The translations under genes were made by a program, and so were the position numbers. From Somniosus microcephalus (Eukaryota): a DNA stretch of 64,000 bases. The notes beneath the pieces were generated by a model, which saw nothing but the letters and a program-made list of their open reading frames with translations, was not told where the DNA came from and searched no databases. The first letter of the stretch is position 1; each line of letters starts with the position of its first letter. This document shows, piece after piece, positions 20,981 through 54,190 of this stretch. Where the stretch lies: the NCBI GenBank assembly GCA_052327205.1, contig CM126214.1, forward strand, positions 10,044,001 through 10,108,000. Direction: 5' to 3'.

Positions 20981-21094
20981 TATATATATTTGTACGCCAT
21001 GCACACGTCAATGTGTTGTTGACAAACCAGGAGGCAAAAATGGTCATCTGTGCACTCTCAGATGCATTTGCAATGTCTTAACATTTACAGAGCA

Positions 21095-21794
21095 AAGCTT
21101 AGAAATTCGGTGGGCTGCGCCACCAGTTAGCACCCAAAGAAGGCACTTAGTGGGTTTAGCGCCACTGGCCACGCCTCCCGCGAAATTTAGAGGGGCACTA
21201 ATGGCGGCGTTAGCCGGTAGCGCTGCGCTGCCACCGATGAAGTCATCGATGTGCGCAGCGCCCCGCTACCGCCCCGATATTTGGTAGCGCCCCCCCCCGC
21301 TGTAACGCCGGTCGTAATTTGCGACCGGTTCAGGGGGGCCTACCTGCGGCAGTAGAGGCGCAAATTAAAGGAGGTGCGGGGCGGCCATCTTTGTTGTTGG
21401 CCGCCTGCCAGCACCTCTCTGCGCTTCTGTCCCCGGCCTCCTAACCCCACCCCCGCGTTGTGCCGGCTGTGTCCCAAGAGCCTGGCACTTCTCGGTGCCG
21501 GGCTCTTTTGCCGGCACTCGTGATCTCCGATCGCGCTGCAGCAGGCCCCTCCCCTTTAAGAAGGGGAGGAAGGCCTGCAGTACTGCAGCGCGCCGTGCCG
21601 CAGCGTGGCGCTGCGGCACGTTGCGCTGCGATTTTCAGTTGCAGCGCCCCAAGACGGATGCGGGGCGCCGCGCTTCCGTTTGGGACGCTCAAACTGAATA
21701 TCTGGCTGGCGCTCACGGCTCCTTCCGGGGCGGTACTTCCGGCGCCCAGGCGAGACTGGCGCCCCAAACAGGGCACCACCGAATTTCTAGGCCC
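21095..21794. mobile_element. PIF/Harbinger-like MITE, CpG-rich
   Basis: TIR core TAGAAATTCGGTGG (21100-21113) and CCACCGAATTTCTAGGCCC (21776-21794). Shares motifs such as TTAAAGGGGAGG-like and GCGCCCC with 1111-1989. Confidence 0.75.
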
Positions 21795-23060
21795 AAATAT
21801 TTTATTGTGCAAGAACACTATCTATATACGGACAATACTGATTTTGCCATGGAAGGACCGAAATATAGGAAGTTTAAAAAGGGCTCTCCCATAGTTGTGT
21901 GGGTTTAGCCAGTGAGTACCTGAGCCATAAAAAACAGGAAGCTCCCAGGTATGAGTTAGCTGATCAGAGTTGCAGTGGCAGTAGTGGTGCTACAATTAGC
22001 CTCAATGACATGACTTGTCCGTGATGCCCTCGTGGTTGACAGTCTGCTGAAACTCACCGTCAATGGTCATACATGAATAATGGCCACTTGAGTGAGGTAG
22101 TGGAGGGTGATTGGCATCCATGGAACCATACCCTAGGAAGGACTGAATGCCTTCAGGAGAGGAGGGAGGAATTGATAAAAAAAATTTTTTTTAAAAACAG
22201 TGTTTGCAGAACAGCTTTGCATTAAAGTACCATTCATTAGTATGAATGATGATAATAGATTTTGTATGTGGCTGTAAATATTTATCAATAGTACATCTGA
22301 TTATTGAAAATGAGCTCAGTGTAACTGAGAAGTTTTTTTGAAAACAAAGCATAGCTAAACAGCACAAGCCCTACCATACAGAAATATGTCTTCAGTTAGC
22401 CCATCATGGCAGCTCTGATAGTCTATAAATAATCCTCATCCGAGACGTCCAGAGCTAAGAGAGGAAGCATGGTGGCAGGAGGAAGCATGGTGGCAGGAGG
22501 AAGCAGCGGGGAACTGTAGAAGCTTCTTACAAAAGGAAACCATACAAATCTAGACATGGAATTTCCCTGTGTTCCTGGTGCAGATTCAGTACTGTAATAC
22601 AGTACAGTTAAAGTTTTATAAAATCAACTCAAGAACTCTATAAATAAAGTTGATCTAAACAGGAAATTGGTCTTGTACCAACATTGAAACTGGTTAGTCT
22701 GGCGCTTGTCCAGTGAGCAGAAAATAATTTTAACATATAACTGCTGTGCAATATTGAATAACTACTAAGGTGATCTTAGACAGGACAGTAGTAGGAGTGA
22801 TAAAATTGTTCTCAATGCCCCTTTTGGGGGTGTGGAGAAAAGGGAAAGCAACCAGGGTTTCTCTTGCTGACCACAATCCAATGCCCCATGCTCGAAGGTC
22901 AAGTGTGGGACTCAGGTGAGGACAGGCTTTGCGGTAATGCCCCCTGTTGTTGAAGAGTAGACCATTACTAAGCATCAAGGCTTCCATGCAAATAGTCTCC
23001 ACACGGTAAGGTACTAGAGTGCACCAGATGCATGTGGAACTGTAAGGAGAGGGAGAAGTT

Positions 23061-24925: not shown

Positions 24926-27900
24926 GGCAGAGATTTTCTTTACCGCGGCGGGCAACGTTGGTGGCGGCTTCCTACCCCGCTGCTGGCTCCATCCCGCTCT
25001 GGAAAATGATTTTACATTGATGGGGCTTGTTAAGCCCGCCCAGTGCTTTTGCTGGTCCAATTAGAGGAAGCGGGTCTGGTGACGTCATTCATGACTCATC
25101 ATCGGCCGGTTTCCTTAAAAGGACCATGGCCAACTTTCTTTTAACATTTGTGCTGTCAGTGTTCCACAGCATTGAAGTGCTGCAAACACTGACAATGACG
25201 GCATAGAGGTGCAGGACTGCACCCAGGTTCTCCCATGACTCCCTCCATATGACCTCCTCTTCCCATCCGATGGGCTGAAGACACCTCCCCAGGAGACCAA
25301 CACAGCCTGGTTGCACATTGCACAGGAAGGCACAAGCAGGGATGTCGTCAGAAGGACCTGGGTGCAGTGGCGCAAACCTTTCAATGATCTCAGTGGATCA
25401 TGAAACATTAGTACAAAGCCACACTCACCTTCATCTTGCTGTGCCTCTCATCACATCCCCATCACGCTGCCTTCCCTACCCTACCCCTGCACATCCTTAC
25501 CCACACCAACTTACCTTGCACCTCCACCTATCCTTCTCTCTCTATCTATATTATCACATCCCCATCTCACTAGCCACCCCCCATACTAGTGCAATCATAC
25601 CAACTAACAACACACAAGGGTAGCCACTTTGGCTTTTTATCCAATGTTCATGTAAAGTTTCTGTCAATGCGCTGTCAAACATTGAAACCTTTATTTTCAA
25701 CACTTTGCATTCTTGGGACAGATTTGTGCGCACCTTTGGAAGTGGCTTAGTGAGTTGCAGTGAATGAATGGTGAGACATAACAGTACCTCCCGCAATGGT
25801 GATGAGTGTGAAAGGAATGGCTTGGACATTGTAGGGATGCTTTATGGTGTTGGTGTAGGGTGCTGCCAACCTGGCGCATCTTGTGGCAGCCAAGGTGTAC
25901 AGCATCAAGAGAAGTAAATCTGGCCATGGTGAGGCCATCCCTGGCCTCCCGGGCAGCAATGTGCTCAGGTGCTGATGCCCTGTGTCCTGTGCAGCATCAG
26001 GTGATTGCGGAGAAGGTTGGTGTTGTTGTTGGTGCTGCTGATGTTGGGGCTGATCGTGCTCGGATTCTGAGCACCAAGGTGAGACAGTATAAAGGGTACC
26101 CATGTTGATGGAATAGATGGCAGGTGAAGTAGAGATAACAGAAGCATTGTCAATGGTGAGAGAGTTCCTCCAATGAGGTAAGAGTGAATGGAGAGTGCAA
26201 AGTGGAAAACCTGCTGGAAATCGACTTGAGAAACAGCTTTGTGGCTGAGGAAAGTGATGTCAGCTGGGAGCTTTTACTGTACGTTTGAAGCTGTCAAGTA
26301 ATCAGCTGCAGCAATGGCCACTGAACTCCCGCCTCAGGTTGACAGCCATGGTCCCCGAACAGCATGGTTCCCGTGGTCAAAGTTAAAAGTGAAAAGGTAA
26401 GTTTAAAAAGCCTGTGAATGATCTGTCAACTAGATGGTAAAGATGTTAATTGGGTCCCCCAATGCTGCCTGTCGGGTCTGCTCAGCACCGACAGACCCGA
26501 CATAGGGAAAGGTGTGTTGCGGCGGAAATTAGGGATAGCATAAGATCCGAGAGGACATATAAATTGGCCAGAAAATGCAGCAAACCAGAGGATTGGGAGT
26601 AGTTTAGGATTCAGCAAAGGAGGACAAAGGGATTAATTAAGAGGGGGAAAATAGAGTATGAGAGTAAGCTTTCAGGGAACATAAAAACTGACTGTAAAAG
26701 CTTCTATAGATATGTGAAGAGAAAAAGATTGGTGAAGTCAAGTGTAGATCCCTTGCAGCTAGAATCAGGGGAATTTATAAAAGGGGAACAAAGAAATGGC
26801 TGACCAATTAAATAGATACTTTGGTTCTGTCTTCACAAAGGAGGACACAAATAACCTCCCAGAGATGTCGGGGAACATAGGGTCTAATGAGAGGGAGGAA
26901 CTGAATGAAATCAGTATTTGTAGGGAAATGGTGTTAGGGAAATTGACGGGATTGAAGGCCGATAAATCCCCAGGGCCTGATAATCTACATGCTAGGGTAC
27001 TTAAGGAAGTGGCCCTAGAAATAGTAGATGCATTGCTGGTCATCTTCCAAAATTCTAGAGACTCTGGAACAGTTCCCATGGATTGGAGGGTAGCTAATGT
27101 AACCCCACTATTTAAAAAAGGTGGTAGAGAGAAAACGGGGACTTATAGACCGGTAAGCCTGACATCGGTAGTGGGGAAAATGTTAGAGTCCATTATAAAA
27201 GATGTAACAGCAGAGCACTTGGAAAACAGTGACAGGATCGGACAAAGTCAACATGGATTTACAAAAGGTAAATCGTGCTTGACTAATCTACTGGAATTTT
27301 TTCAGGATGTAACTGGTAGAATAGATAAGGGAGAACCAGTAGATGTGGTGTATTTGGACTTTCAGAAGGCTTTCGATAAGGTCCCGCATAAGAGATTAGC
27401 GTGCAAAGTTAAAGCACATGGGATTGGGGGTAAGGTACCGACTTGGACAGAGAACTGGTTGGCAGACAGGAAGCAAAGAGTTGGAATAAACGGGTCTTTT
27501 TCCGAGTGGCAGGCAGTGACTAGTGGGGTATCGCAGGTATCGGTGCTAGGACCCCAGCTATTCACAATATATATTAATGATCTAGACGAGGGAACTAGAT
27601 GTAATATCTCCAAGTTTGCAGATAACACAAAGCTGGGTGGTCATGTGTGCTGTGAGGAGGATGCAGAGAAACCCCAGTATGATTTGGACAGGTTGGGTGA
27701 TTGGGCAGATGCAGTATAATGTGGATAAATGCGAGGTTATCCACTTTGGTGGTAAAAACAGGAAGGCAGATTATCTGAACGGCAATAGATTGGGAAAAGG
27801 GGAAGTGCAACGAGACCTGGGTGTCCTTGTGCACCAGTCGCTGAAGGTAAGCATGCAGGTGCAGCAGGTGGTTAAGAAGGCAAATGGTATGTTGGCCTTC

Positions 27901-28582
27901 ATAGCAAGAGGATTCGTGTACAGGAGCAAGGATGTCTTGCTGCAGTTTTACAGGGCCTTGGTGAGATCACACCTTGAGTATTGTGTGCAGTTTTGGTCCC
28001 CTTATCTGAGGAAGGATATTCTTGCCATGGAGGGAGTGCAGCGAAGATTCACCAGACTGATACCTGGGATGGCAGGAATGACGTATGGAGAGAGATTGGG
28101 TCGATTAGGCTTATATTTGCTAGTGTTCAGAAGAATGAGAGGGGATCTCATTGAAACTTATAAAATTCTAACAGGACTAGACAGACTAGATGCAGGAAGG
28201 ATGTTCTCGATGGCGGGGGAGTCCAGAACCAGGGGGTCACAGTCTAAGGATAAGGGGTAAGCCATGTAGGACTGAGATGAGCAGAAATGTCATCACCCAG
28301 AGAGTGGTGAACCTGTGGAATTCTTTACCACAGAAGGCAGTTGAGGCCATTCATTAAATATATTCAAGAAGGCGTTAGATATATTTCTTAAGGCTAAAAG
28401 GATCAAGGGATATGGGGAGAAAGCAGGGACAGGGTACTGAATTTGGATGATCAGCCATGATCTCATTAAATGGCGGAGCAGGCTCGAGGGGCCGAATGGC
28501 CTACTCCTGCTCCTATCTTCTATGTTTCTATGAAACTAATTTTCCACCCAACCCGCCACTGATCCCCCAGAAAATTCCAGCC
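24926..28582 (+). mobile_element. Decayed Harbinger derivative with a Myb/SANT remnant, hosting a CR1 insertion
   Basis: 25200-25395 encodes frameshifted Myb-like motifs (PRFS, PSDG, RRTWVQWRKPFNDL) homologous to 37143-37382. Right end is AAAATTCCAGCC; the left end is degenerate. Confidence 0.65.
26525..28533 (+). mobile_element. 5'-truncated CR1 LINE (ORF2 reverse transcriptase, frameshifted)
   Basis: ORFs 26796-27719 and 27616-28260 contain KSPGPD, YRPVSLTS, YLDFQKAFDKVPH and KFADNTKL. Ends in a CTATGTTTCTATG tail. Confidence 0.95.
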
Positions 28583-30456
28583 AAAGTGTCTGTCTAGTTA
28601 CAATGCATTTTTTTGGCTGAACCTCAAACACTATTCTAAGAAGGATCCACTGCATTATTTTCAGATGTTGAGCACAGTGCAAAGGAAAATCAGATTTGAG
28701 AAAGAAAAAGTTTGAGGGTCATCATCATAACATTTTAGGCAGATATTTAGAAATGCTGGGCTGCTGCCCAGTTCCTCCTGGGTAGCAAACTAGTTAAATG
28801 TACCACAAAGAGTAGTAATGAGCCCAGAAGATCAAAAAGGTACCATTATCTGGTCCCTGGACCCAGTTAGTAAATCAATTTCAGCAAAGGTAGCAGTGTG
28901 TGTTGGGGGCAGCATTAAGACCCACCCTAGTGTCTCCAAGATAGGGAGGTGGTGGGTGGGGGGGGGTAGTATCAGCCAGGATTTCTGCTCCTGATTACCA
29001 ACCAATACCTCCTGCTGGCAGTGTGCGCCACTATTTGAGGGATTAGGTTTGGGGATCAAATCGGATGGCTATTAAATGGAACAGCAAAAGTTGACACTAT
29101 CTGATCAATCTCCCAATTGGCTGAATTACCAGACAGCCATCACTACAACATGGAATCGAACTTCAGCACCAGTTGCTATCTTAGAAAAAGTGATAAAAAT
29201 CAGAGGACAAGTTAGAGGTTGAGGTTTCAGAAATCAAAGAGAAAAATTATGTACATTGGGCTTGAAATGGGATTCCATAATTGTCGGATTTAAAAACATG
29301 TTTTTTCCCTTATTTTATCTGGATTTGAACGACAAACACTGCTGTTGACTTTGTCTCCCTACCCTTGGCTGGCAAGGGATCCCTGTAAAAGTTACTGGTT
29401 TGCAGTTTTCAAAATGGAATCTCTAAAGCACCTGTTAATATTCTAGGATTTCTCGATCATAAACCAGTAATCCTAATTATAAATGGATGCAATTATAGAA
29501 TGTGATCCCCAAAATACCAGAAGAAAAATCATAGATTCCCATATCATTAAAAAATGGAATTTGATTTGTTAATCACTTTAAACCAGTGGCTGTAGTCTTT
29601 GTGCGTTAACTTTGCCATTTACATATTAACACATGCAGAGAATACAGGTGAAACAAGGAATAATTTTTTTTTTCTCAAGTCCTGATCTGAAATTTGATCT
29701 AGTTTCACCCCAGCACCAAATTTTCACTGTTTTTGAAAGTTCCAAAATACATCCTGAAAAATTCCTGGAAAACTTTTTCAAAAATAAAACCTGAAACCAC
29801 GCATAATACAAGACTGGATTCAGTGCATAACAGGAAGGCTTGTAAAATATCAGTGTAGTCCAAACAAGATCAGCTGTTCGTTGCAGATTATAAACGCACC
29901 CGCTAGTACACCCATTTAATCCTCTGGCCCACTTAAAACAAGTTTCGACAATAAATCAGTAACATCCTGTATGTGTCAGTGATGTTTTGTGCTGCCGCTA
30001 TTTTCACCCCGTAAATCATATTTAATATTGTCCTGAAGTGAAAATGTTAGCTCATTGCGACCTCTAATAGTTGAGAACTACTTCACAGTAAACACAGCAC
30101 CAAGTCCCACCCACTCCAAACTCAGAGTTTGAAAACACACAGTTGACAATCACTTCAAGCCACTTTGATATTGATGATGGGGTGCCAGGAGAGTGGCATT
30201 AAGTGGAGTCCCACAACATTCAAGCATCAAACTCCACTTGTTATTATAGCAGCATGCAGCTGGCCCAGTCAGTGGTCCAAGAGTATGAGTTGCATGCTTT
30301 CCACTGCCTCCAACAGCCAGTCTTGAAATACAGGAAAAAAAGCATGTAGTATAGGAGGCATGTAGTTTGTCTATTTTATTATTGACTAGCTGAAGTGCCC
30401 AGCGGGGCCGAGGGATTTTTGAGGGCATGTTGTTGTTGGAAGCGAGAGAGCGGGCG

Positions 30457-33418
30457 GAAGAGAGAGAGCGACTGGGGGGGGAAGAGAGAGAGCGACTGGG
30501 GGGGGGAAGAGAGAGAGCGACTGGGGGGGGGGGAAGAGAGAGAGCGACTGGGGGGGAAGAGAGAGAGCGACTGGGGGGGGGAAGAGAGAGAGCGACTGGG
30601 GGGGAAGAGAGAGAGCGACTGGGGGGGGGAAGAGAGAGAGCGACTGGGGGGAAAGAGAGAGAGCGACTGGGGGGGGAAGAGAGAGAGCGGCTGGGGGGGG
30701 AAGAGAGAGAGCGGCTGGGGGGGAAGAGAGAGAGCGACTGGGGGGGAAGAGAGAGAGCGACTGGGGGGGAAGAGAGAGAGCGACTGGGGGGAAGAGAGAG
30801 AGCGACTGGGGGGGAAGAGAGAGAGCGACTGGGGGGAAGAGAGAGAGCGACTGGGGGGAAGAGAGAGAGCGACTGGGGGGAAGAGAGAGAGCGACTGGGG
30901 GGAAGAGAGAGAGCGACTGGGGGGAAGAGAGAGAGCGACTGGGGGGAAGAGAGAGAGCGACTGGGGGGAAGAGAGAGAGCGACTGGGGGGAAGAGAGAGA
31001 GCGACTGGGGGGAAGAGAGAGAGCGACTGGGGGGAAGAGAGAGAGCGACTGGGGGGAAGAGAGAGAGCGACTGGGGGGAAGAGAGAGAGCGACTGGGGGG
31101 AAGAGAGAGAGCGACTGGGGGGAAGAGAGAGAGCGACTGGGGGGAAGAGAGAGAGCGACTGGGGGAAGAGAGAGAGCGACTGGGGGGAAGAGAGAGAGCG
31201 ACTGGGGGGAAGAGAGAGAGCGACTGGGGGGAAGAGAGAGAGCGACTGGGGGGAAGAGAGAGAGCGACTGGGGGGAAGAGAGAGAGCGACTGGGGGGGAA
31301 GAGAGAGAGCGACTGGGGGGAAGAGAGAGAGCGACTGGGGGGAAGAGAGAGAGCGACTGGGGGGAAGAGAGAGAGCGACTGGGGGGAAGAGAGAGAGCGA
31401 CTGGGGGGAAGAGAGAGAGCGACTGGGGGGAAGAGAGAGAGCGACTGGGGGGAAGAGAGAGAGCGACTGGGGGGAAGAGAGAGAGCGACTGGGGGGAAGA
31501 GAGAGAGCGACTGGGGGGAAGAGAGAGAGCGACTGGGGGGAAGAGAGAGAGCGACTGGGGGGAAGAGAGAGAGCGACTGGGGGGAAGAGAGAGAGCGACT
31601 GGGGGGAAGAGAGAGAGCGACTGGGGGGAAGAGAGAGAGCGACTGGGGGGAAGAGAGAGAGCGACTGGGGGGAAGAGAGAGAGCGACTGGGGGAAGAGAG
31701 AGAGCGACTGGGGGGAAGAGAGAGAGCGACTGGGGGGAAGAGAGAGAGCGACTGGGGGGAAGAGAGAGAGCGACTGGGGGGAAGAGAGAGAGCGACTGGG
31801 GGGAAGAGAGAGAGCGACTGGGGGGAAGAGAGAGAGCGACTGGGGGGAAGAGAGAGAGCGACTGGGGGGAAGAGAGAGAGCGACTGGGGGGAAGAGAGAG
31901 AGCGACTGGGGGGAAGAGAGAGAGCGACTGGGGGGAAGAGAGAGAGCGACTGGGGGGAAGAGAGAGAGCGACTGGGGGGAAGAGAGAGAGCGACTGGGGG
32001 GAAGAGAGAGAGCGACTGGGGGGAAGAGAGAGAGCGACTGGGGGGAAGAGAGAGAGCGACTGGGGGAAGAGAGAGAGCGACTGGGGGGAAGAGAGAGAGC
32101 GACTGGGGGGAAGAGAGAGAGCGACTGGGGGGAAGAGAGAGAGCGACTGGGGGGAAGAGAGAGAGCGACTGGGGGGAAGAGAGAGAGCGACTGGGGGGAA
32201 GAGAGAGAGCGACTGGGGGGAAGAGAGAGAGCGACTGGGGGGAAGAGAGAGAGCGACTGGGGGGAAGAGAGAGAGCGACTGGGGGGAAGAGAGAGAGCGA
32301 CTGGGGGGAAGAGAGAGAGCGACTGGGGGGAAGAGAGAGAGCGACTGGGGGGAAGAGAGAGAGCGACTGGGGGGAAGAGAGAGAGCGACTGGGGGAAGAG
32401 AGAGAGCGACTGGGGGGAAGAGAGAGAGCGACTGGGGGGAAGAGAGAGAGCGACTGGGGGGAAGAGAGAGAGCGACTGGGGGGAAGAGAGAGAGCGACTG
32501 GGGGGAAGAGAGAGAGCGACTGGGGGGAAGAGAGAGAGCGACTGGGGGGAAGAGAGAGAGCGACTGGGGGGAAGAGAGAGAGCGACTGGGGGGAAGAGAG
32601 AGAGCGACTGGGGGGAAGAGAGAGAGCGACTGGGGGGAAGAGAGAGAGCGATGGAGAGAGAGCGACTGGGGGAAGAGAGAGAGCGACTGGGGGGAAGAGA
32701 GAGAGCGACTGGGGGGAAGAGAGAGAGCGACTGGGGGGAAGAGAGAGAGCGACTGGGGGGAAGAGAGAGAGCGACTGGGGGGAAGAGAGAGAGCGACTGG
32801 GGGGAAGAGAGAGAGCGACTGGGGGGAAGAGAGAGAGCGACTGGGGGGAAGAGAGAGAGCGACTGGGGGGAAGAGAGAGAGCGACTGGGGGAAGAGAGAG
32901 AGCGACTGGGGGGAAGAGAGAGAGCGACTGGGGGGAAGAGAGAGAGCGACTGGGGGGAAGAGAGAGAGCGACTGGGGGGAAGAGAGAGAGCGACTGGGGG
33001 GAAGAGAGAGAGCGACTGGGGGGAAGAGAGAGCGACTGGGGGGAAGAGAGAGAGCGACTGGGGGGAAGAGAGAGAGCGACTGGGGGGAAGAGAGAGAGCG
33101 ACTGGGGGGAAGAGAGAGAGCGACTGGGGGGAAGAGAGAGAGCGACTGGGGGGAAGAGAGAGAGCGACTGGGGGGAAGAGAGAGAGCGACTGGGGGGAAG
33201 AGAGAGAGCGACTGGGGGGAAGAGAGAGAGCGACTGGGGGGAAGAGAGAGAGCGACTGGGGGGAAGAGAGAGAGCGACTGGGGGGAAGAGAGAGAGCGAC
33301 TGGGGGGAAGAGAGAGAGCGACTGGGGGGAAGAGAGAGAGCGACTGGGGGAAGAGAGAGAGCGACTGGGGGGAAGAGAGAGAGCGACTGGGGGGAAGAGA
33401 GAGAGCGACTGGGGGGAA
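30457..33418. repeat. 22-bp minisatellite (GAAGAGAGAGAGCGACTGGGGG)n, roughly 130-135 copies
   Basis: Directly visible. Units vary mostly in G-run length; longer G runs cluster at the left end. Confidence 0.98.
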
Positions 33419-33440
33419 AGGGGAGGGGAGGGGGGAAAGG

Positions 33441-33614
33441 NNNNNNNNNNNNNNNNNNNNNNNNNNNNNNNNNNNNNNNNNNNNNNNNNNNNNNNNNNNN
33501 NNNNNNNNNNNNNNNNNNNNNNNNNNNNNNNNNNNNNNNNNNNNNNNNNNNNNNNNNNNNNNNNNNNNNNNNNNNNNNNNNNNNNNNNNNNNNNNNNNNN
33601 NNNNNNNNNNNNNN
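33441..33614. other. Assembly gap (174 N)
   Basis: Run of n characters. Confidence 1.
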
Positions 33615-33689
33615 GAGGGGGGGAGAGGGAGAGGAGGGGAGGGGGAAGGAGGGGGGGAGAAAGGGAGGGGGGAGCCAGCAGTCCCTCTC

Positions 33690-34620
33690 CCCTCTGCCGG
33701 TGAAGGCTCCGCTGAGCTCCGTGCCGCCCCACGCACTGACATGCCGAGCGCAGCGCCCCAGTCAGCCCGAGCCCCGCCCTCTCGAGGCTGGGCCTGAGGC
33801 GGCTTGAGACGGCCGATTGCGGCTGGCCGGGCCCGGTTGCCTTAGTAACCCTCCTCCCCTCTCCGCCTCCCGATCTCCGGGACTGGGCCTGAGCGGCTTG
33901 CGACGGCCGATTGCGACTGGCGAGCCCGGTTGCCAGGGTAACCCTCTCTGCTCCCCCTCCCGAGCCCCGCCCCCCCTAACCTGCTCGCTTCCCTCTGGCC
34001 ACGCTCTGTGTGGAGGTGCGCGTGCGCTGTGCAGCGCGAGCGCGAATGAAGCGCGAGGAGCTTGCAGTGAGCCCAGCCAGCCTTTACCAAGATGGCTGGC
34101 CGCTGGTTCGGAATCGGGCCCAGCCGGTGGGGGGGTGGGAGGAGCTTGCCACAAAACAATTGCCTAGGGTCCAGCATGGCTGGCAACAGACGCCCAGGCT
34201 TCGGGGCCTACCTGCAAAAACGGGCAAAGGTAGGAAAGTTAATGAGATTAGAGAAAAAGATTTAGAAAGTAATTAACTTAAGAAAACAATGTGTGTTTTA
34301 AAAGCAACTTTTTTTTTTGAAGACGCAGAAAGCGGGAAAAAGAAATGAAATGAAAAGTTTGGAATCAAGATGGCGGCGACTCACCTCGGTTCAGAACGAT
34401 AAGGCCCGCCCACACACGCACCGATTGGTCGACCGCCAGGTCACCGAAGCGTAGGATTGGTCAATCGTCCCGTCACTCGACTCTAGGAGGGCCCGCCCGC
34501 ACGCGCCAGGAACCCGCCCCCGCCACGCAGCGATTGGTCGACCGTCGGGTTGCTCGACCGTACGATTGGTTGACCTCGACGTCACTCAATGCTAATGAGC
34601 AGATAATGAGCGGAATTTTG
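33690..34620. promoter_or_regulatory. CpG island inside the Helitron-like element
   Basis: Dense CpG. Contains RFX X-box matches (33836-33849, 33929-33942), an NRF1-like TGCGCGTGCGC (34017-34027), YY1 motifs (34088-34096, 34366-34377) and GC boxes. Confidence 0.75.
34405..34590 (-). promoter_or_regulatory. TATA-less Pol II promoter-like module: 4 CCAAT boxes, GC boxes, CRE-like site
   Basis: ATTGG at 34424, 34456, 34533 and 34565; CCCGCCC boxes; GACGTCA at 34578-34584. Lies just upstream of a minus-strand donor GAG|GTGAGT (34384). Confidence 0.7.
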
Positions 34621-35146
34621 AACGTTTTTTGGATACCGCGGGCACAATTTTTGTCTCACCGAAATGTAAATATGCTTACGACCGTTCTGGAATCGTAAGC
34701 TTTCTTTTGATGTAACACACGTGTAGGTACGCTCTATAACTTTTGATTGTATAGCCGGACAGAGAGACAGAAAGACAGACAGAGCGACATACCGTTTTAT
34801 ATATATATAATACAATATAATAATAATGTGCTGCTGCTGGGGTGGGTGAAGGGAATCTCTTTCAACGTAATAATTTTATACATCTCTACTTGGCAGTAGC
34901 CAGCCCAATTTTGTACACGCAAGAACAGTCAAATGTAATATTTGCCAAGTCCATCTCTAACTGGCTGCCTTTCATTTCACGAGATATCATAATTCCAGTT
35001 CTCGGTTAACTGTGAATACACATGTCTACTCACATGCACTTCCAGCAGGGGACACTAGATAACAATCAGGAGCAGTAACTCCATCGTCCCCTCCCTAATC
35101 TAGGAGTGCTGAAGCCAATTGGACCATCCCTACTGCTTCCCCAGTT

Positions 35147-36850
35147 GAACATAAGAAATAGGAGCAGGAGTCGGCCATTTGGCCCCTTGAGCCTGCTCCG
35201 CCATTCAATAAGATCATGGCTGATCTTCTACCTCAACTCCACTTTCCTGCACTATCCCCATATCCCTTAATATCCAAAAATCTATCAATCTCTGTCTTGA
35301 ATATGCTCAACGACTGAGCCTCCACAGCCCTCTGGGGCAGAGAATTCCAAAGATTCACCACCCTCAGTGAAGAAATTCCTCCTCATCTCAGTCCCAAATG
35401 GCCGACACCTTATCGTGTGACTGTGATCCCTGGTTCTAGACTCTCCAGCCAGGGGAAACATCCTCCCTGCATCTACCCAGTCAAGCCCTGTAAGAATTTT
35501 GTATGTTTCAATGAGATCACCTCTCATTCTTCTAAACTCTAGAGAATATAGGCCCAGTCTACTCAATCTCTCCTCATAGGACAATTCCCCCATCCCAGGA
35601 ACCAGTCTGGTGAACCTTCGTTGCACTCCCTCTATGGCAGGTATATCCTTCCTTAGGTAAGGAGACCAAAACTGTACACAATACTCGAGGTGTGGTCTCA
35701 ACAGGGCCCTGTATAATTGCAGTAAGGCGTCTTTACTCTAATACTCAAATCCTCTTGTAATAAAGGCCAACATACCATTTGCTTTCCTAGTCGCTTGCTG
35801 TACCTGCATGTTAACTTTATGATTCGTGTACAAGGACACCCAAGTCCCTCTGAACACCAACATTTCCCAATCGCTCACCAGTTAAAAAAAACTCTGCTTT
35901 TCTATTTTTCCTACCGAAGTGGATAACTTCACATTTCTCCACATTATATTCCATTTGCCATGTTCTTGCCCACTCACTTAGCCTGTCTATATCCCCTTGA
36001 AGCCTCCTTGCATCCTCCTCACAACTTACATTCCCACCCAGCTTTGTATCATCAGCAAACTTGGATATATTACATTTGGTCCCCTCATCCAAATCATTGA
36101 TACAGACTATGAATAGCTGAGGCCCAAGCACTGATCCTTGCGGAATCCTACTAATTACAACCTGTCAACCAGAAAATGACCTGTTTATTCCTACTCTCTG
36201 TTTTCTGTCCGTTAACCAATCCTCAATCCATGCTAGTATTTAACCCCCAATCCCATGAGCCCCAATTTTGTTTAATAACCTCTTGTGTGGCACCTTATCG
36301 AATGTCTTCTGAAAATCCAAATACACCACATCCACTGGTTCCCCCATATCTATTCTGCTAGTTACAACCTCAAAAAACTCTTACAGATTCGTCAAACACG
36401 ATTTCCCTTTCATAAATCCGTGTTGACTCTGCCCAATCCTATTATTATTTTCTAATGCCCTGTTACCACGTCTTTAATAATAGATTCTCGCATTTTCCCT
36501 ATTACTGATGTCAGGCTAACTGGTCTGTAATTACCCGTTTTCTCTCTCCCTCCTTTCTTAAATAGTGGGGTTACATTTTCTACCTTCCAATCCACGGGAA
36601 CCATTCTAGAATCTATGGAATTTTGGAAAATTACAACCAATGCATCCACTATCTCTATAGTCACCTCTTTCAAAACCTTAGGATGTAGGCCATCAAGTCC
36701 AGGGGATTTATCGGCTTTCAGTCCCATTAATTTCTCCAGTACTATTTTTTTACTAATACTAATTTCTTTCAGTTCTTCATTCTCGCTAGACCTTTGGTTC
36801 TCCACTATTTCCGGGAAGTTTTTTGCATCTTCTTCCGTGAAGACAGACAC
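35147..36850 (-). mobile_element. CR1 LINE, 3' portion
   Basis: RT ORF fragments 35285-35701, 35817-36131 (KFADDTKL) and 36452-36850. Tail AACATAAGAAATAGGAGCAGG. Confidence 0.95.
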
Positions 36851-52563: not shown

Positions 52564-52933
52564 GGGGGCCAATTTTCACTTCTGGGCGGCTGACTGGCGG
52601 AGCGCGTCAGCCACCTGCTCGTCAAGTGAGCAAGGAGGCCCAAGGCATTTTGAGCTCGGGCCTCATTTAAATCTCACCAACGTGCTGTACGCTCTGAATG
52701 GGCATCCTACTGCAGCTTGCTGGCTCTGGACTAGTGCAATATCGGGCAGCTCAACACCGCGCCAGTCCCCGCAGGTAGATCTGGGCGAAGTGGAGGTGCC
52801 AAACCAGTGAGCCACAGCATTTTGTGGGACTAGGAGAAGCACTGCGGTTCTTCCAGGCTCCATAAATATATAACCCAGAAACATTTGTGTGCATGGTGCA
52901 CATTCCGCCCATATGTCCCTGAAAATTGCAATC
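52564..52933. mobile_element. Harbinger-like MITE remnant
   Basis: Ends GGGGGCCAATTTTCA and TGAAAATTGCAATC form a degenerate TIR pair. Confidence 0.5.
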
Positions 52934-52964
52934 AGAGTCTTAACTGTTGTAGGAACCTAATTTG

Positions 52965-54190
52965 CATAAGGAGGGTAGATGAGGGTAGTGTGTTTGATGT
53001 AGTGTATATGGACTTTAGCAAGGCTTTTGATAAAGTTCCACGTGGCAGATTGGTCACGAAGTTAAAAGCCCATGGGATCCAGGGCAAAGTGTCAAGTTGG
53101 ATTCAAAACTGTCTCGGAGGCAGGAAGCAGAGGATAATGGTTGATGGGTTTTTTTGTGACTGGAAGGCTATTTCCAGTGGGGTTCCGCAGGGCTCAGTAC
53201 TAGGTCCCTTGCTTTTTTTGGTATATATTAATGATCTAGACTTAAATATAGGGGGTATGATTAAGAAGTTTGCAGATGATACTAAAATCAGCTGTGTGGT
53301 TGATACTGAAGGAGGAAGCTGTAGACTGCAGGAAGATATCAATAAATTGGTCAGGTGGGCAGAACAGTGGCAAATGGAATTCAATCCGGAGAAGTGTGAG
53401 GTAATGCATTTGGGGAGGGCTAACAAGGAAAGGGAATACACATTAAATGGTAGGACACTGAGTAGTGTAGAGGAACAAAGGGACCTTGGAGTGCATGTCC
53501 ACAGATCCCTGAAGGTAGCAGGCCCAGTCGATAAGGTGATTAAGAAGGCATACGGAATGCTTGCCTTTATTAGTCGTGGCATAGAATACAAGAGCAGGGG
53601 GGGGGGTTATGCTTCAACTGTATAAAACACTAGTTAGGCCTCAGCTAGAGCACTGCGTGCAGTTCTGGTCACCACATTACAGGAAAGATGTGATTGCACT
53701 GGAGAGGGTGCAGAGGAGATTTACAAGGATGTTGCTGGGAGTAGAGAATCTTAGTTACGAGGAAAGACTGGATAGGCTGGGTTTGTTTTCCTTGGAACTG
53801 AGGAGGCTGAAGGGAGACCTTAGAGGTGTATAAAATTATGAGGGGCCTAGATAAAGTGGATAGAAAGGACCTATTTCCCTTAGCAGAGGGGTCAAAAACT
53901 AGGGGGCATAGATTTAAAGTAATTGGTGGAAGGTTTAGAGGGAATTTGAAGGGAAATTTCTTCACCCAGAAGGTTGTGGGGGTCTGGAACTCACTGCCTG
54001 AAAGGGTGGTAGAGGCAGGAACCCTAACCACATTTAAAAAGTACTTGAATGTGCACTTGGGATGCTGTAACCTGCAGGGCTACGGACCAAGAGCTGGGAA
54101 GTGGGATTAGGCTGGATAGCTCTTGTTGGCCGGCGCGGACACGATGGGCCGAAATGCCCTCCTTCCGTGCTGTAACTTTCTATGATTCTA
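52965..54190 (+). mobile_element. 5'-truncated CR1 LINE
   Basis: YMDFSKAFDKVP, GVPQGSVLGP and KFADDTK motifs, frameshifts, and a TTCTATGATTCTAT tail. Confidence 0.95.

Follow-up and report, generated by a model that had tools for sequence, protein, structure and literature searches.

The locus and its element

We analysed a stretch of 64,000 nucleotides from Somniosus microcephalus (assembly GCA_052327205.1, contig CM126214.1, positions 10,044,001 to 10,108,000 of the forward strand), called the window in the following. A G-protein gamma gene on its minus strand hosts a Helitron-like element (34810-30386) in its coding intron, on the same (sense) strand as the gene. The label GNG7 for the host gene is presumptive and goes by its N-terminus; the PDB matches of its product were gamma-2. 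An initial annotation, made from the letters alone, had read the element as a mobile cassette with the promoter and first exons of a captured host gene. The features are given below, where fractions of 49 refer to DNA upstream of genes for the Helitron transposase RepHel and a slash within a motif marks a junction.

43373-43293, minus: first coding exon of the host G-protein gamma gene, presumably GNG7-like
34810-34792, minus: 5' terminus TT-ATATATATAT-AAAA, preceded by a target A at 34811; the family has TC
34807-34600, minus: conserved 5' core common with RepHel-coding Helitrons (35/49 RepHel upstream regions, 74-86% identity)
34789-34754, minus: (CTGT/CT) microsatellite of the 5' terminal region, also present in RepHel-coding elements
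34599-34385, minus: predicted transposase promoter and non-coding exon 1 (26/49)
34392-34379, minus: splice donor GAG/GTGAGT with its GT at 34384 (23/49)
34384-34212, minus: 173-nt T-rich stretch with an acceptor-like end, 75% identical to its counterpart in locus L116
34211-33690, minus: GC-rich leader module ('exon 2'), ~520 nt
33689-33419, minus: C-rich tract, including a gap of 174 N at 33441-33614
33418-30452, minus: 22-nt pyrimidine minisatellite, ~134 units; unit also in 8 RepHel upstream regions
30434-30417, minus: RepHel start remnant with ATG at 30428-30426 and about 4-5 codons, the preceding AG acceptor gone
30416-30386, minus: 3' terminus with a weak GC hairpin and CTAG (30389-30386), followed by a target T at 30385
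20046-19921, minus: last coding exon of the host gene

The sequence TATATATAAAACGG occupies 34805-34792 on the minus strand. The copy begins with TT at 34810, one base off the TC of its family, and about 200 nt of AT-rich core follow the (CTGT)-like tract. The predicted promoter holds, on the minus strand, four ACCAATC boxes (34564, 34532, 34455 and 34423), three GC boxes (34519, 34498 and 34411) and a site resembling a cAMP-response element (CRE) at 34584-34578. CCAAT as such was not enriched over the whole window (22 versus 18.7 expected); only its clustering and conservation stand out. A YY1-like site (34374-34366, minus) comes just after the donor, and the 173-nt stretch ends in TTTTTGCAG at 34212. 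Within the GC-rich module there are a second YY1-like site (34096-34088) and a duplicated unit of ~94 nt with X-box-like sites at 33942-33929 and 33849-33836. The names YY1, RFX X-box, CRE and NF-Y are putative labels given by likeness to consensus motifs. Every minisatellite unit closes with (Y)n-CAG; the long reading frames that run over this array were rejected as genes, being artefacts of the repeat. The termini, the (CTGT)-like tract, the CCAAT and GC boxes, the donor at 34384, the YY1-like site, the minisatellite, the 174 N and CTAG/T were all located where the initial annotation had placed them.

Copies, termini and target sites in the genome

Genome searches returned first-look candidates, which are not verified copies, and the 40 best of each search were scored. 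A query of the 5' 271 nt gave 5,478 candidates; the best 40 scored were all 95-100% identical, including the window copy itself. With the island queries 33690-34190 and 34030-34135 there were 1,978 and 1,330 candidates. After removal of 7 duplicate and 3 self loci, 80 non-redundant copies with fetched spans of 3.2-3.5 kb were examined, in which the 5' end was found in 58, the 3' end in 43 and both in 28.

The family started with TC in 43 of the 50 5' ends with flank, 39 of these after an A, and 41 of 43 3' ends were followed by T. Sixteen of the 19 fully delimited copies were inserted between A and T. A target-site duplication (TSD) was of length 0 in 13 of the 19, the remainder being at chance level, and the window copy likewise sits between A and T with a TSD of 0. 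Two copies among the 80 and the 19 (L063 and L069 on C5, about 57 kb apart) have near-identical flanks and are therefore a segmental duplication, not two insertions. Loci L011 and L017 contain head-to-tail tandem junctions of the form CTAG/TC. The 3' end of the window element is near-identical to the 3' ends of RepHel elements, and the position of its hairpin matches theirs; the stem of 4-6 bp, with z scores of -0.4 to -1.4, was no stronger than in shuffled sequences.

Canonical Helitrons (HLE1), as defined for HELIANO (PMC11417382), start with TC, end in a short hairpin with CTRR, insert between A and T without TSD and share termini with a RepHel-coding partner. The family shows all four, with CTAG as the 3' motif and a weak stem; the window copy departs from it by its TT. 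By these termini and the domain content of the coding partner we classify the window element as a non-autonomous canonical Helitron (HLE1). An assignment to HLE2/Helentron (DINE-like) was rejected, as these insert between T and T and the targets here are A/T. The Helitron termini proposed in the initial annotation stood for the family, less so for the window copy with its TT and for the 3' GC hairpin, while the suspicion of a multi-copy mobile element that lies in sense orientation in the G-protein gamma intron and carries promoter-like motifs and a donor was borne out, including the co-occurrence of both termini in other copies at A/T sites.

Forty-two copies link the island to the 3' end by an N-free tract of 61-1,444 nt with 84-98% pyrimidine, so the 174-N gap of the window copy sits in the tract expected there. 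Other copies seen whole hold 0-14 minisatellite units compared with ~134 in the window copy, although the short fetched loci favour short arrays. The 3-kb array of the window copy appears, on this count, to be an expansion.

Coding relatives and the origin of the promoter-like island

The same genome contains at least 150 loci with a Helitron Rep domain. Upstream DNA was fetched for 50 of them with a limit of 8 kb, and leaving out L148 gave 49 regions. The 5' core, the promoter and the donor occurred in 35, 26 and 23 of these, respectively, and no 3' end was detected between them and the gene. In 40 of the 49 an ATG context could be recognised, and in 34 an AG acceptor after a T-tract lies directly before the ATG. 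The nearest coding leader, L116, was 84% identical to the window element in the core, 92-95% in the promoter and 75% in the 173-nt stretch. It then continues with the first 79 nt of 'exon 2' at 95%, followed by X-box pieces, a C-rich tract, the acceptor and the ATG. The leader of L150 holds the X-box repeats and the 22-nt minisatellite unit of the window element.

The last 50 nt of the element consist of a RepHel start fused to the terminal hairpin of coding elements. This start, with its ATG at 30428 and some four codons, matches the beginning of the L091 gene, and the remnant preceded the hairpin in all 43 copies whose 3' end was in range. In the 25-nt contexts listed for the copies, AAC replaces the AG acceptor before the ATG.

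Across 18 aligned leaders, the columns of the CCAAT, GC-box, donor and YY1 motifs were conserved to 0.985 compared with 0.886 for other non-CpG columns, a value reached by none of 10,000 column shuffles. The sequence AGGTGAGT was invariant in these leaders, which had been chosen for having the donor. Gene capture would have left a segment foreign to the normal structure of the coding partner; here the promoter and the donor belong to that structure in 26 and 23 of the 49 regions. With its promoter and donor shared with RepHel leaders, and the RepHel start remnant at the other end of the element, the island is read as a transposase leader. Thus we favor the view, with a probability of roughly 85%, that the element is a deletion derivative of a RepHel-coding Helitron and that the island represents the predicted promoter and first splice donor of the Helitron's own transposase, not a captured host promoter. 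The functional leader intron would then span the whole distance between the donor at 34384 and the ATG, the 173-nt intron of the initial annotation making up at most a part of it. The earlier claim that a host gene 5' end had been captured as in bats found no support: the promoter, the donor and the 173-nt intron have homologues in RepHel leaders of this genome, and so do the beginning of 'exon 2', the X-box repeats and the minisatellite.

Ten RepHel elements, mostly chosen for long frames, were fetched whole. Three were uninterrupted to the C-terminus, at lengths of 1,488, 1,580 and 1,700 aa, and contain the HUH, YxxKY and Walker A motifs; a fourth is open almost to its end. The uninterrupted genes (L091/L092 on C5 at ~124.11 Mb, L095/L096 on C2 and L101/L102 on C4) are mutually 81-94% identical, and these elements are possibly still active Helitrons judging from their frames and intact catalytic motifs. 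The best 120 database relatives of one RepHel (7,989 candidates scored) had 50-61% identity; the named ones came from rotifers, a flatworm, a nematode, insects, a pseudoscorpion and a frog. No named shark protein was among the 120 listed, most entries being nameless.

Some further observations concern the leaders as such. Stretches of exactly 500 N lie inside the leaders of L012, L019, L026, L090, L091, L122 and others and limit the leader counts. At L103/L104, L093/L094 and L099/L100 coding Helitrons are directly followed by arrays of non-coding derivatives. Non-coding elements with differing leaders have one and the same ATG-hairpin 3' end, which suggests module swapping among subfamilies. 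X-box-like (RFX) and YY1-like motifs, as well as CCAAT, turn up repeatedly in leader modules that are unrelated to each other (L116, L127, L133, L142 and L150), and some of them form tandem arrays (L103, L140 and L147); this recurrence possibly reflects selection for germline expression.

Proposed history

Directly observed are the common termini and leader, the fusion of ATG and hairpin, the loss of the AG, the TSD-free insertion between A and T and the head-to-tail tandems. Probably, in a RepHel-coding Helitron of this genome, a deletion that began near codon 5 and reached to the terminal hairpin removed the transposase gene and left the leader in place. It would have spared the 5' terminus together with the predicted promoter of the transposase, exon 1, the splice donor and the long leader intron. 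In coding elements the motifs would drive RepHel transcription, and the donor would be spliced to the AG just before the ATG. Copying of the deleted element by RepHel in trans, through rolling-circle transposition, would be expected from Helitron biology (PMC4778049, PMC11417382); an indirect sign of such mobilisation are the CTAG/TC junctions in L011 and L017. The minisatellite of the window copy may have expanded in place. The copy itself would be methylated in the germline like its siblings and would most likely be a passenger in the host intron.

CpG decay and RNA

In 35 full islands CpG sites carried transitions at 6.4% compared with 1.0% at other C/G sites (~6.5-fold), evenly over four segments. 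The window copy had CpG transitions at 11 of 201 sites and a non-CpG divergence of 1.9% (family median 1.7%). The fast decay of CpG, also in the window copy, points to young and probably methylated transposon DNA, not to a protected island. By its substitution pattern the island is probably a germline-methylated young repeat.

Reads of two RNA runs (X19 and X20; organism B), covering 24% and 31% of the runs, were mapped to 33675-35140 with a likeness of 88%, at a threshold of 5 reads in 100 for joints and loose ends. The minisatellite and the host exons lie outside this region, which put a direct joint to those exons beyond the reach of the mapping. There were 1,689 and 3,533 reads on the island, of which 26 and 63 were at least 99% alike. 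Depth peaked at 34361-34458 like that of DNA contigs, was high upstream of the CCAAT boxes and fell to 0-12 at 33969-34115. None of the 15 joints listed skipped the 173-nt stretch 34384-34212 (29 further joints were found), and none of the 24 loose ends listed lay at the donor (663 further ones were found). Neither a chimeric junction into the host, among the entries listed, nor an effect on the host G-protein gene was seen in the two runs over 33675-35140. Of the promoter cassette claimed earlier, the mobility is supported, and the creation of host transcripts found no counterpart among the RNA entries listed.

Weighing the alternatives

Several points weigh against an origin of the island from a transposase leader. 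No exact parent was found, and the closest coding element matches the GC-rich module only in part. Fourteen of the 49 RepHel regions lack the core and 26 lack the donor, which may be due to membership of other subfamilies, to truncation, to stretches of N or to the limit of 8 kb. In the conservation test the leaders had been picked for their donor, and related sequences as well as columns were counted as if independent. Neither activity of the promoter nor splicing from the donor to the ATG was observed. In X20 the polarity of mates flips near 34500 (126:48 at 34319, 329:593 at 34712), which could reflect divergent promoter activity; X19 showed no flip. Finally, the L119 leader has pieces of a short interspersed nuclear element (SINE) and of a miniature inverted-repeat transposable element (MITE). 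Leaders take up foreign DNA, which leaves room for an old host origin of leader parts. A restricted form of capture, in which only the GC-rich module 34211-33690 was acquired by an ancestral coding element, is unlikely in our estimate.

A second alternative accepts the proposed origin and sees in the copy an active exon trap: it would start transcripts whose orphan donor is joined to the last host exon, with a product that would be non-coding or 33 aa long, or the CAG units of its minisatellite would serve as decoy acceptors. The sense orientation, the intact donor and the loss of the native acceptor in 43 of 43 copies would suit such a trap, as would the family reads in RNA and the polarity switch of X20, and donors of HelibatN3 splice to downstream host exons (PMC4778049). 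On the other hand, only 26 of 1,689 and 63 of 3,533 reads were at least 99% alike, no listed joint bridged 34212-34384 and no listed loose end fell at the donor. RNA depth tracked that of DNA contigs and reached upstream of the CCAAT boxes, and the CpG decay of the window copy equals that of sibling copies. Activity of this kind at the window copy is therefore decidedly unlikely. The broader conjecture is quite unlikely as well: through the deletion of RepHel and its acceptor, the Helitron's own promoter, of germline type, and its donor would have become an exon trap of the element's making at a few thousand sites of this genome, starting chimeric host transcripts including those of the G-protein gamma gene, and intact transposases might still move it.

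Capture of the whole island as promoter and first exon of a host gene by a non-autonomous Helitron, as with NUBPL in bat HelibatN3, is very improbable. The island does carry the motif set of a housekeeping promoter, bat Helitrons captured the promoters of 15 genes (PMC4224331), and leaders vary among subfamilies, that of L119 containing captured repeat DNA. Yet elements that code for RepHel have this promoter, donor and intron as their standard leader. The top 40 matches of each of two module queries were 89-100% alike, and those fetched were all family copies. For the module of L145 the Helitron core adjoined 30 of 30 fetched loci. The two open reading frames (ORFs) of the GC-rich module had no Pfam match. 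The single-copy donor gene sought since the initial annotation was absent among the best 40 scored matches for the window module and for the L145 module, in searches that are weak because 40 of 552-1,978 candidates were scored and family copies swamped them. The L119 module was rejected as a gene capture, since its sources were a dispersed MITE and a piece of a SINE, not a gene.

That the two termini are unrelated sequences misjoined at the N gap, which is unspanned in the window, with no contig across 33675-35140, is practically negligible: in 42 copies this island end and this 3' end are connected, free of N, via the same C-rich tract and minisatellite, C-rich sequence lies on both sides of the gap and both flanks are unique, which largely removes the earlier concern about a misjoin while a join of two copies of the same family at the gap is possible.

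Nested and neighbouring elements

A MITE of 650-840 nt with terminal inverted repeats was present in 12 of 53 family copies (L008, L015, L016, L021, L025, L067, L072, L075, L082, L088, L157 and L178; the tandem locus L017 was left out of the count) at one site, AAAACAC-ATA-TTG, which corresponds to about 34290 in the 173-nt stretch. Inserts aligning end to end were 68-93% alike and lay in either orientation, a sign that insertion happened repeatedly and independently. In its sequence the site is similar to the Harbinger3_DR target AAACACCWGGTCTTT (PMC3016246). The window copy is empty at this hotspot. A member of the same MITE family lies elsewhere in the window at 21097-21786 (plus strand), with a further piece at ~1104-1147. 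The MITE in the host intron has 76-78% identity to the inserts nested in Helitron copies, and its position at 21097-21786 accounts for the CpG-rich patch at 21000-22000.

Also in the host intron, 37023-38602 (plus strand) contains a Myb/SANT-like ORF (PF13873) and a following ORF, probably a fragment of a Harbinger-type element. Broken reverse-transcriptase fragments of long interspersed nuclear elements, which we take to be CR1/L2-like, lie at 26781-28257, 35147-37090, 39446-40663 and 52834-54122. Both flanks of the window copy are single-copy in the genome, so that a search with them found no paralogous empty site. In X1 and in X2, which carry two organism labels but belong to one study, a single contig of 394 nt extends from the flank into the element by 21 aligned letters. 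At most this hints at a shared insertion, as 21 letters fall short of the required 31 and one of the two may be the source of the assembly.

Relation to known systems

With non-autonomous HLE1 elements (PMC11417382) the family has in common the 5' TC, the 3' hairpin with CTRR, insertion between A and T and termini shared with coding partners. The window element differs in retaining ~1.1 kb of motif-rich transposase leader and the RepHel start remnant, and in its TT. HelibatN3 of vesper bats (PMC4778049, PMC4224331) resembles it as a high-copy element with promoter, exon and unpaired donor and as a candidate sense exon trap. The HelibatN3 cassette stems from the host gene NUBPL and trapping was demonstrated for it, while the window cassette appears to be the element's own and its trap is putative. 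Among Xenopus elements (PMC12001565), Heli1Xen1 is a vertebrate Helitron with a presumed 5' promoter and 5' UTR, and non-autonomous copies of Heli2Xen consist mostly of minisatellite. Both belong to another lineage, the repeat unit is 166 bp instead of 22 nt, and the likeness is one of description; the accessible text of PMC12001565 describes neither a leader intron nor an ATG-hairpin fusion for them. Animal RepHel proteins from rotifers, a flatworm and metagenomes share Helitron_like_N, PIF1 and Pif1_2B over the whole query and differ by an identity of at best 61% among the 120 listed.

Helitrons are present in most vertebrates (PMC4350176), and rolling circles make up 0.01-0.02% of the school shark assembly (PMC13434710). 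In the literature searched there was no description of such a Helitron family in cartilaginous fish; Repbase and Dfam were outside this search, and the family may be catalogued there.

Significance

The locus itself is an ordinary transposon insertion, and its value lies in the family. Comparison with coding relatives brought out well-conserved candidates for the promoter, the non-coding exon and the leader intron of a vertebrate Helitron transposase, which opens the expression of RepHel by Helitrons in the germline to testing. As a caution, promoter-like islands in Helitrons should be called captured only after a comparison with the coding parent. Trapping of host exons by the orphan donor, if it occurs, would produce effects like those of HelibatN3 without gene capture. 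The family also points to an extensive expansion of Helitrons in a fish lineage, that of the shark, in which some RepHel genes are intact.

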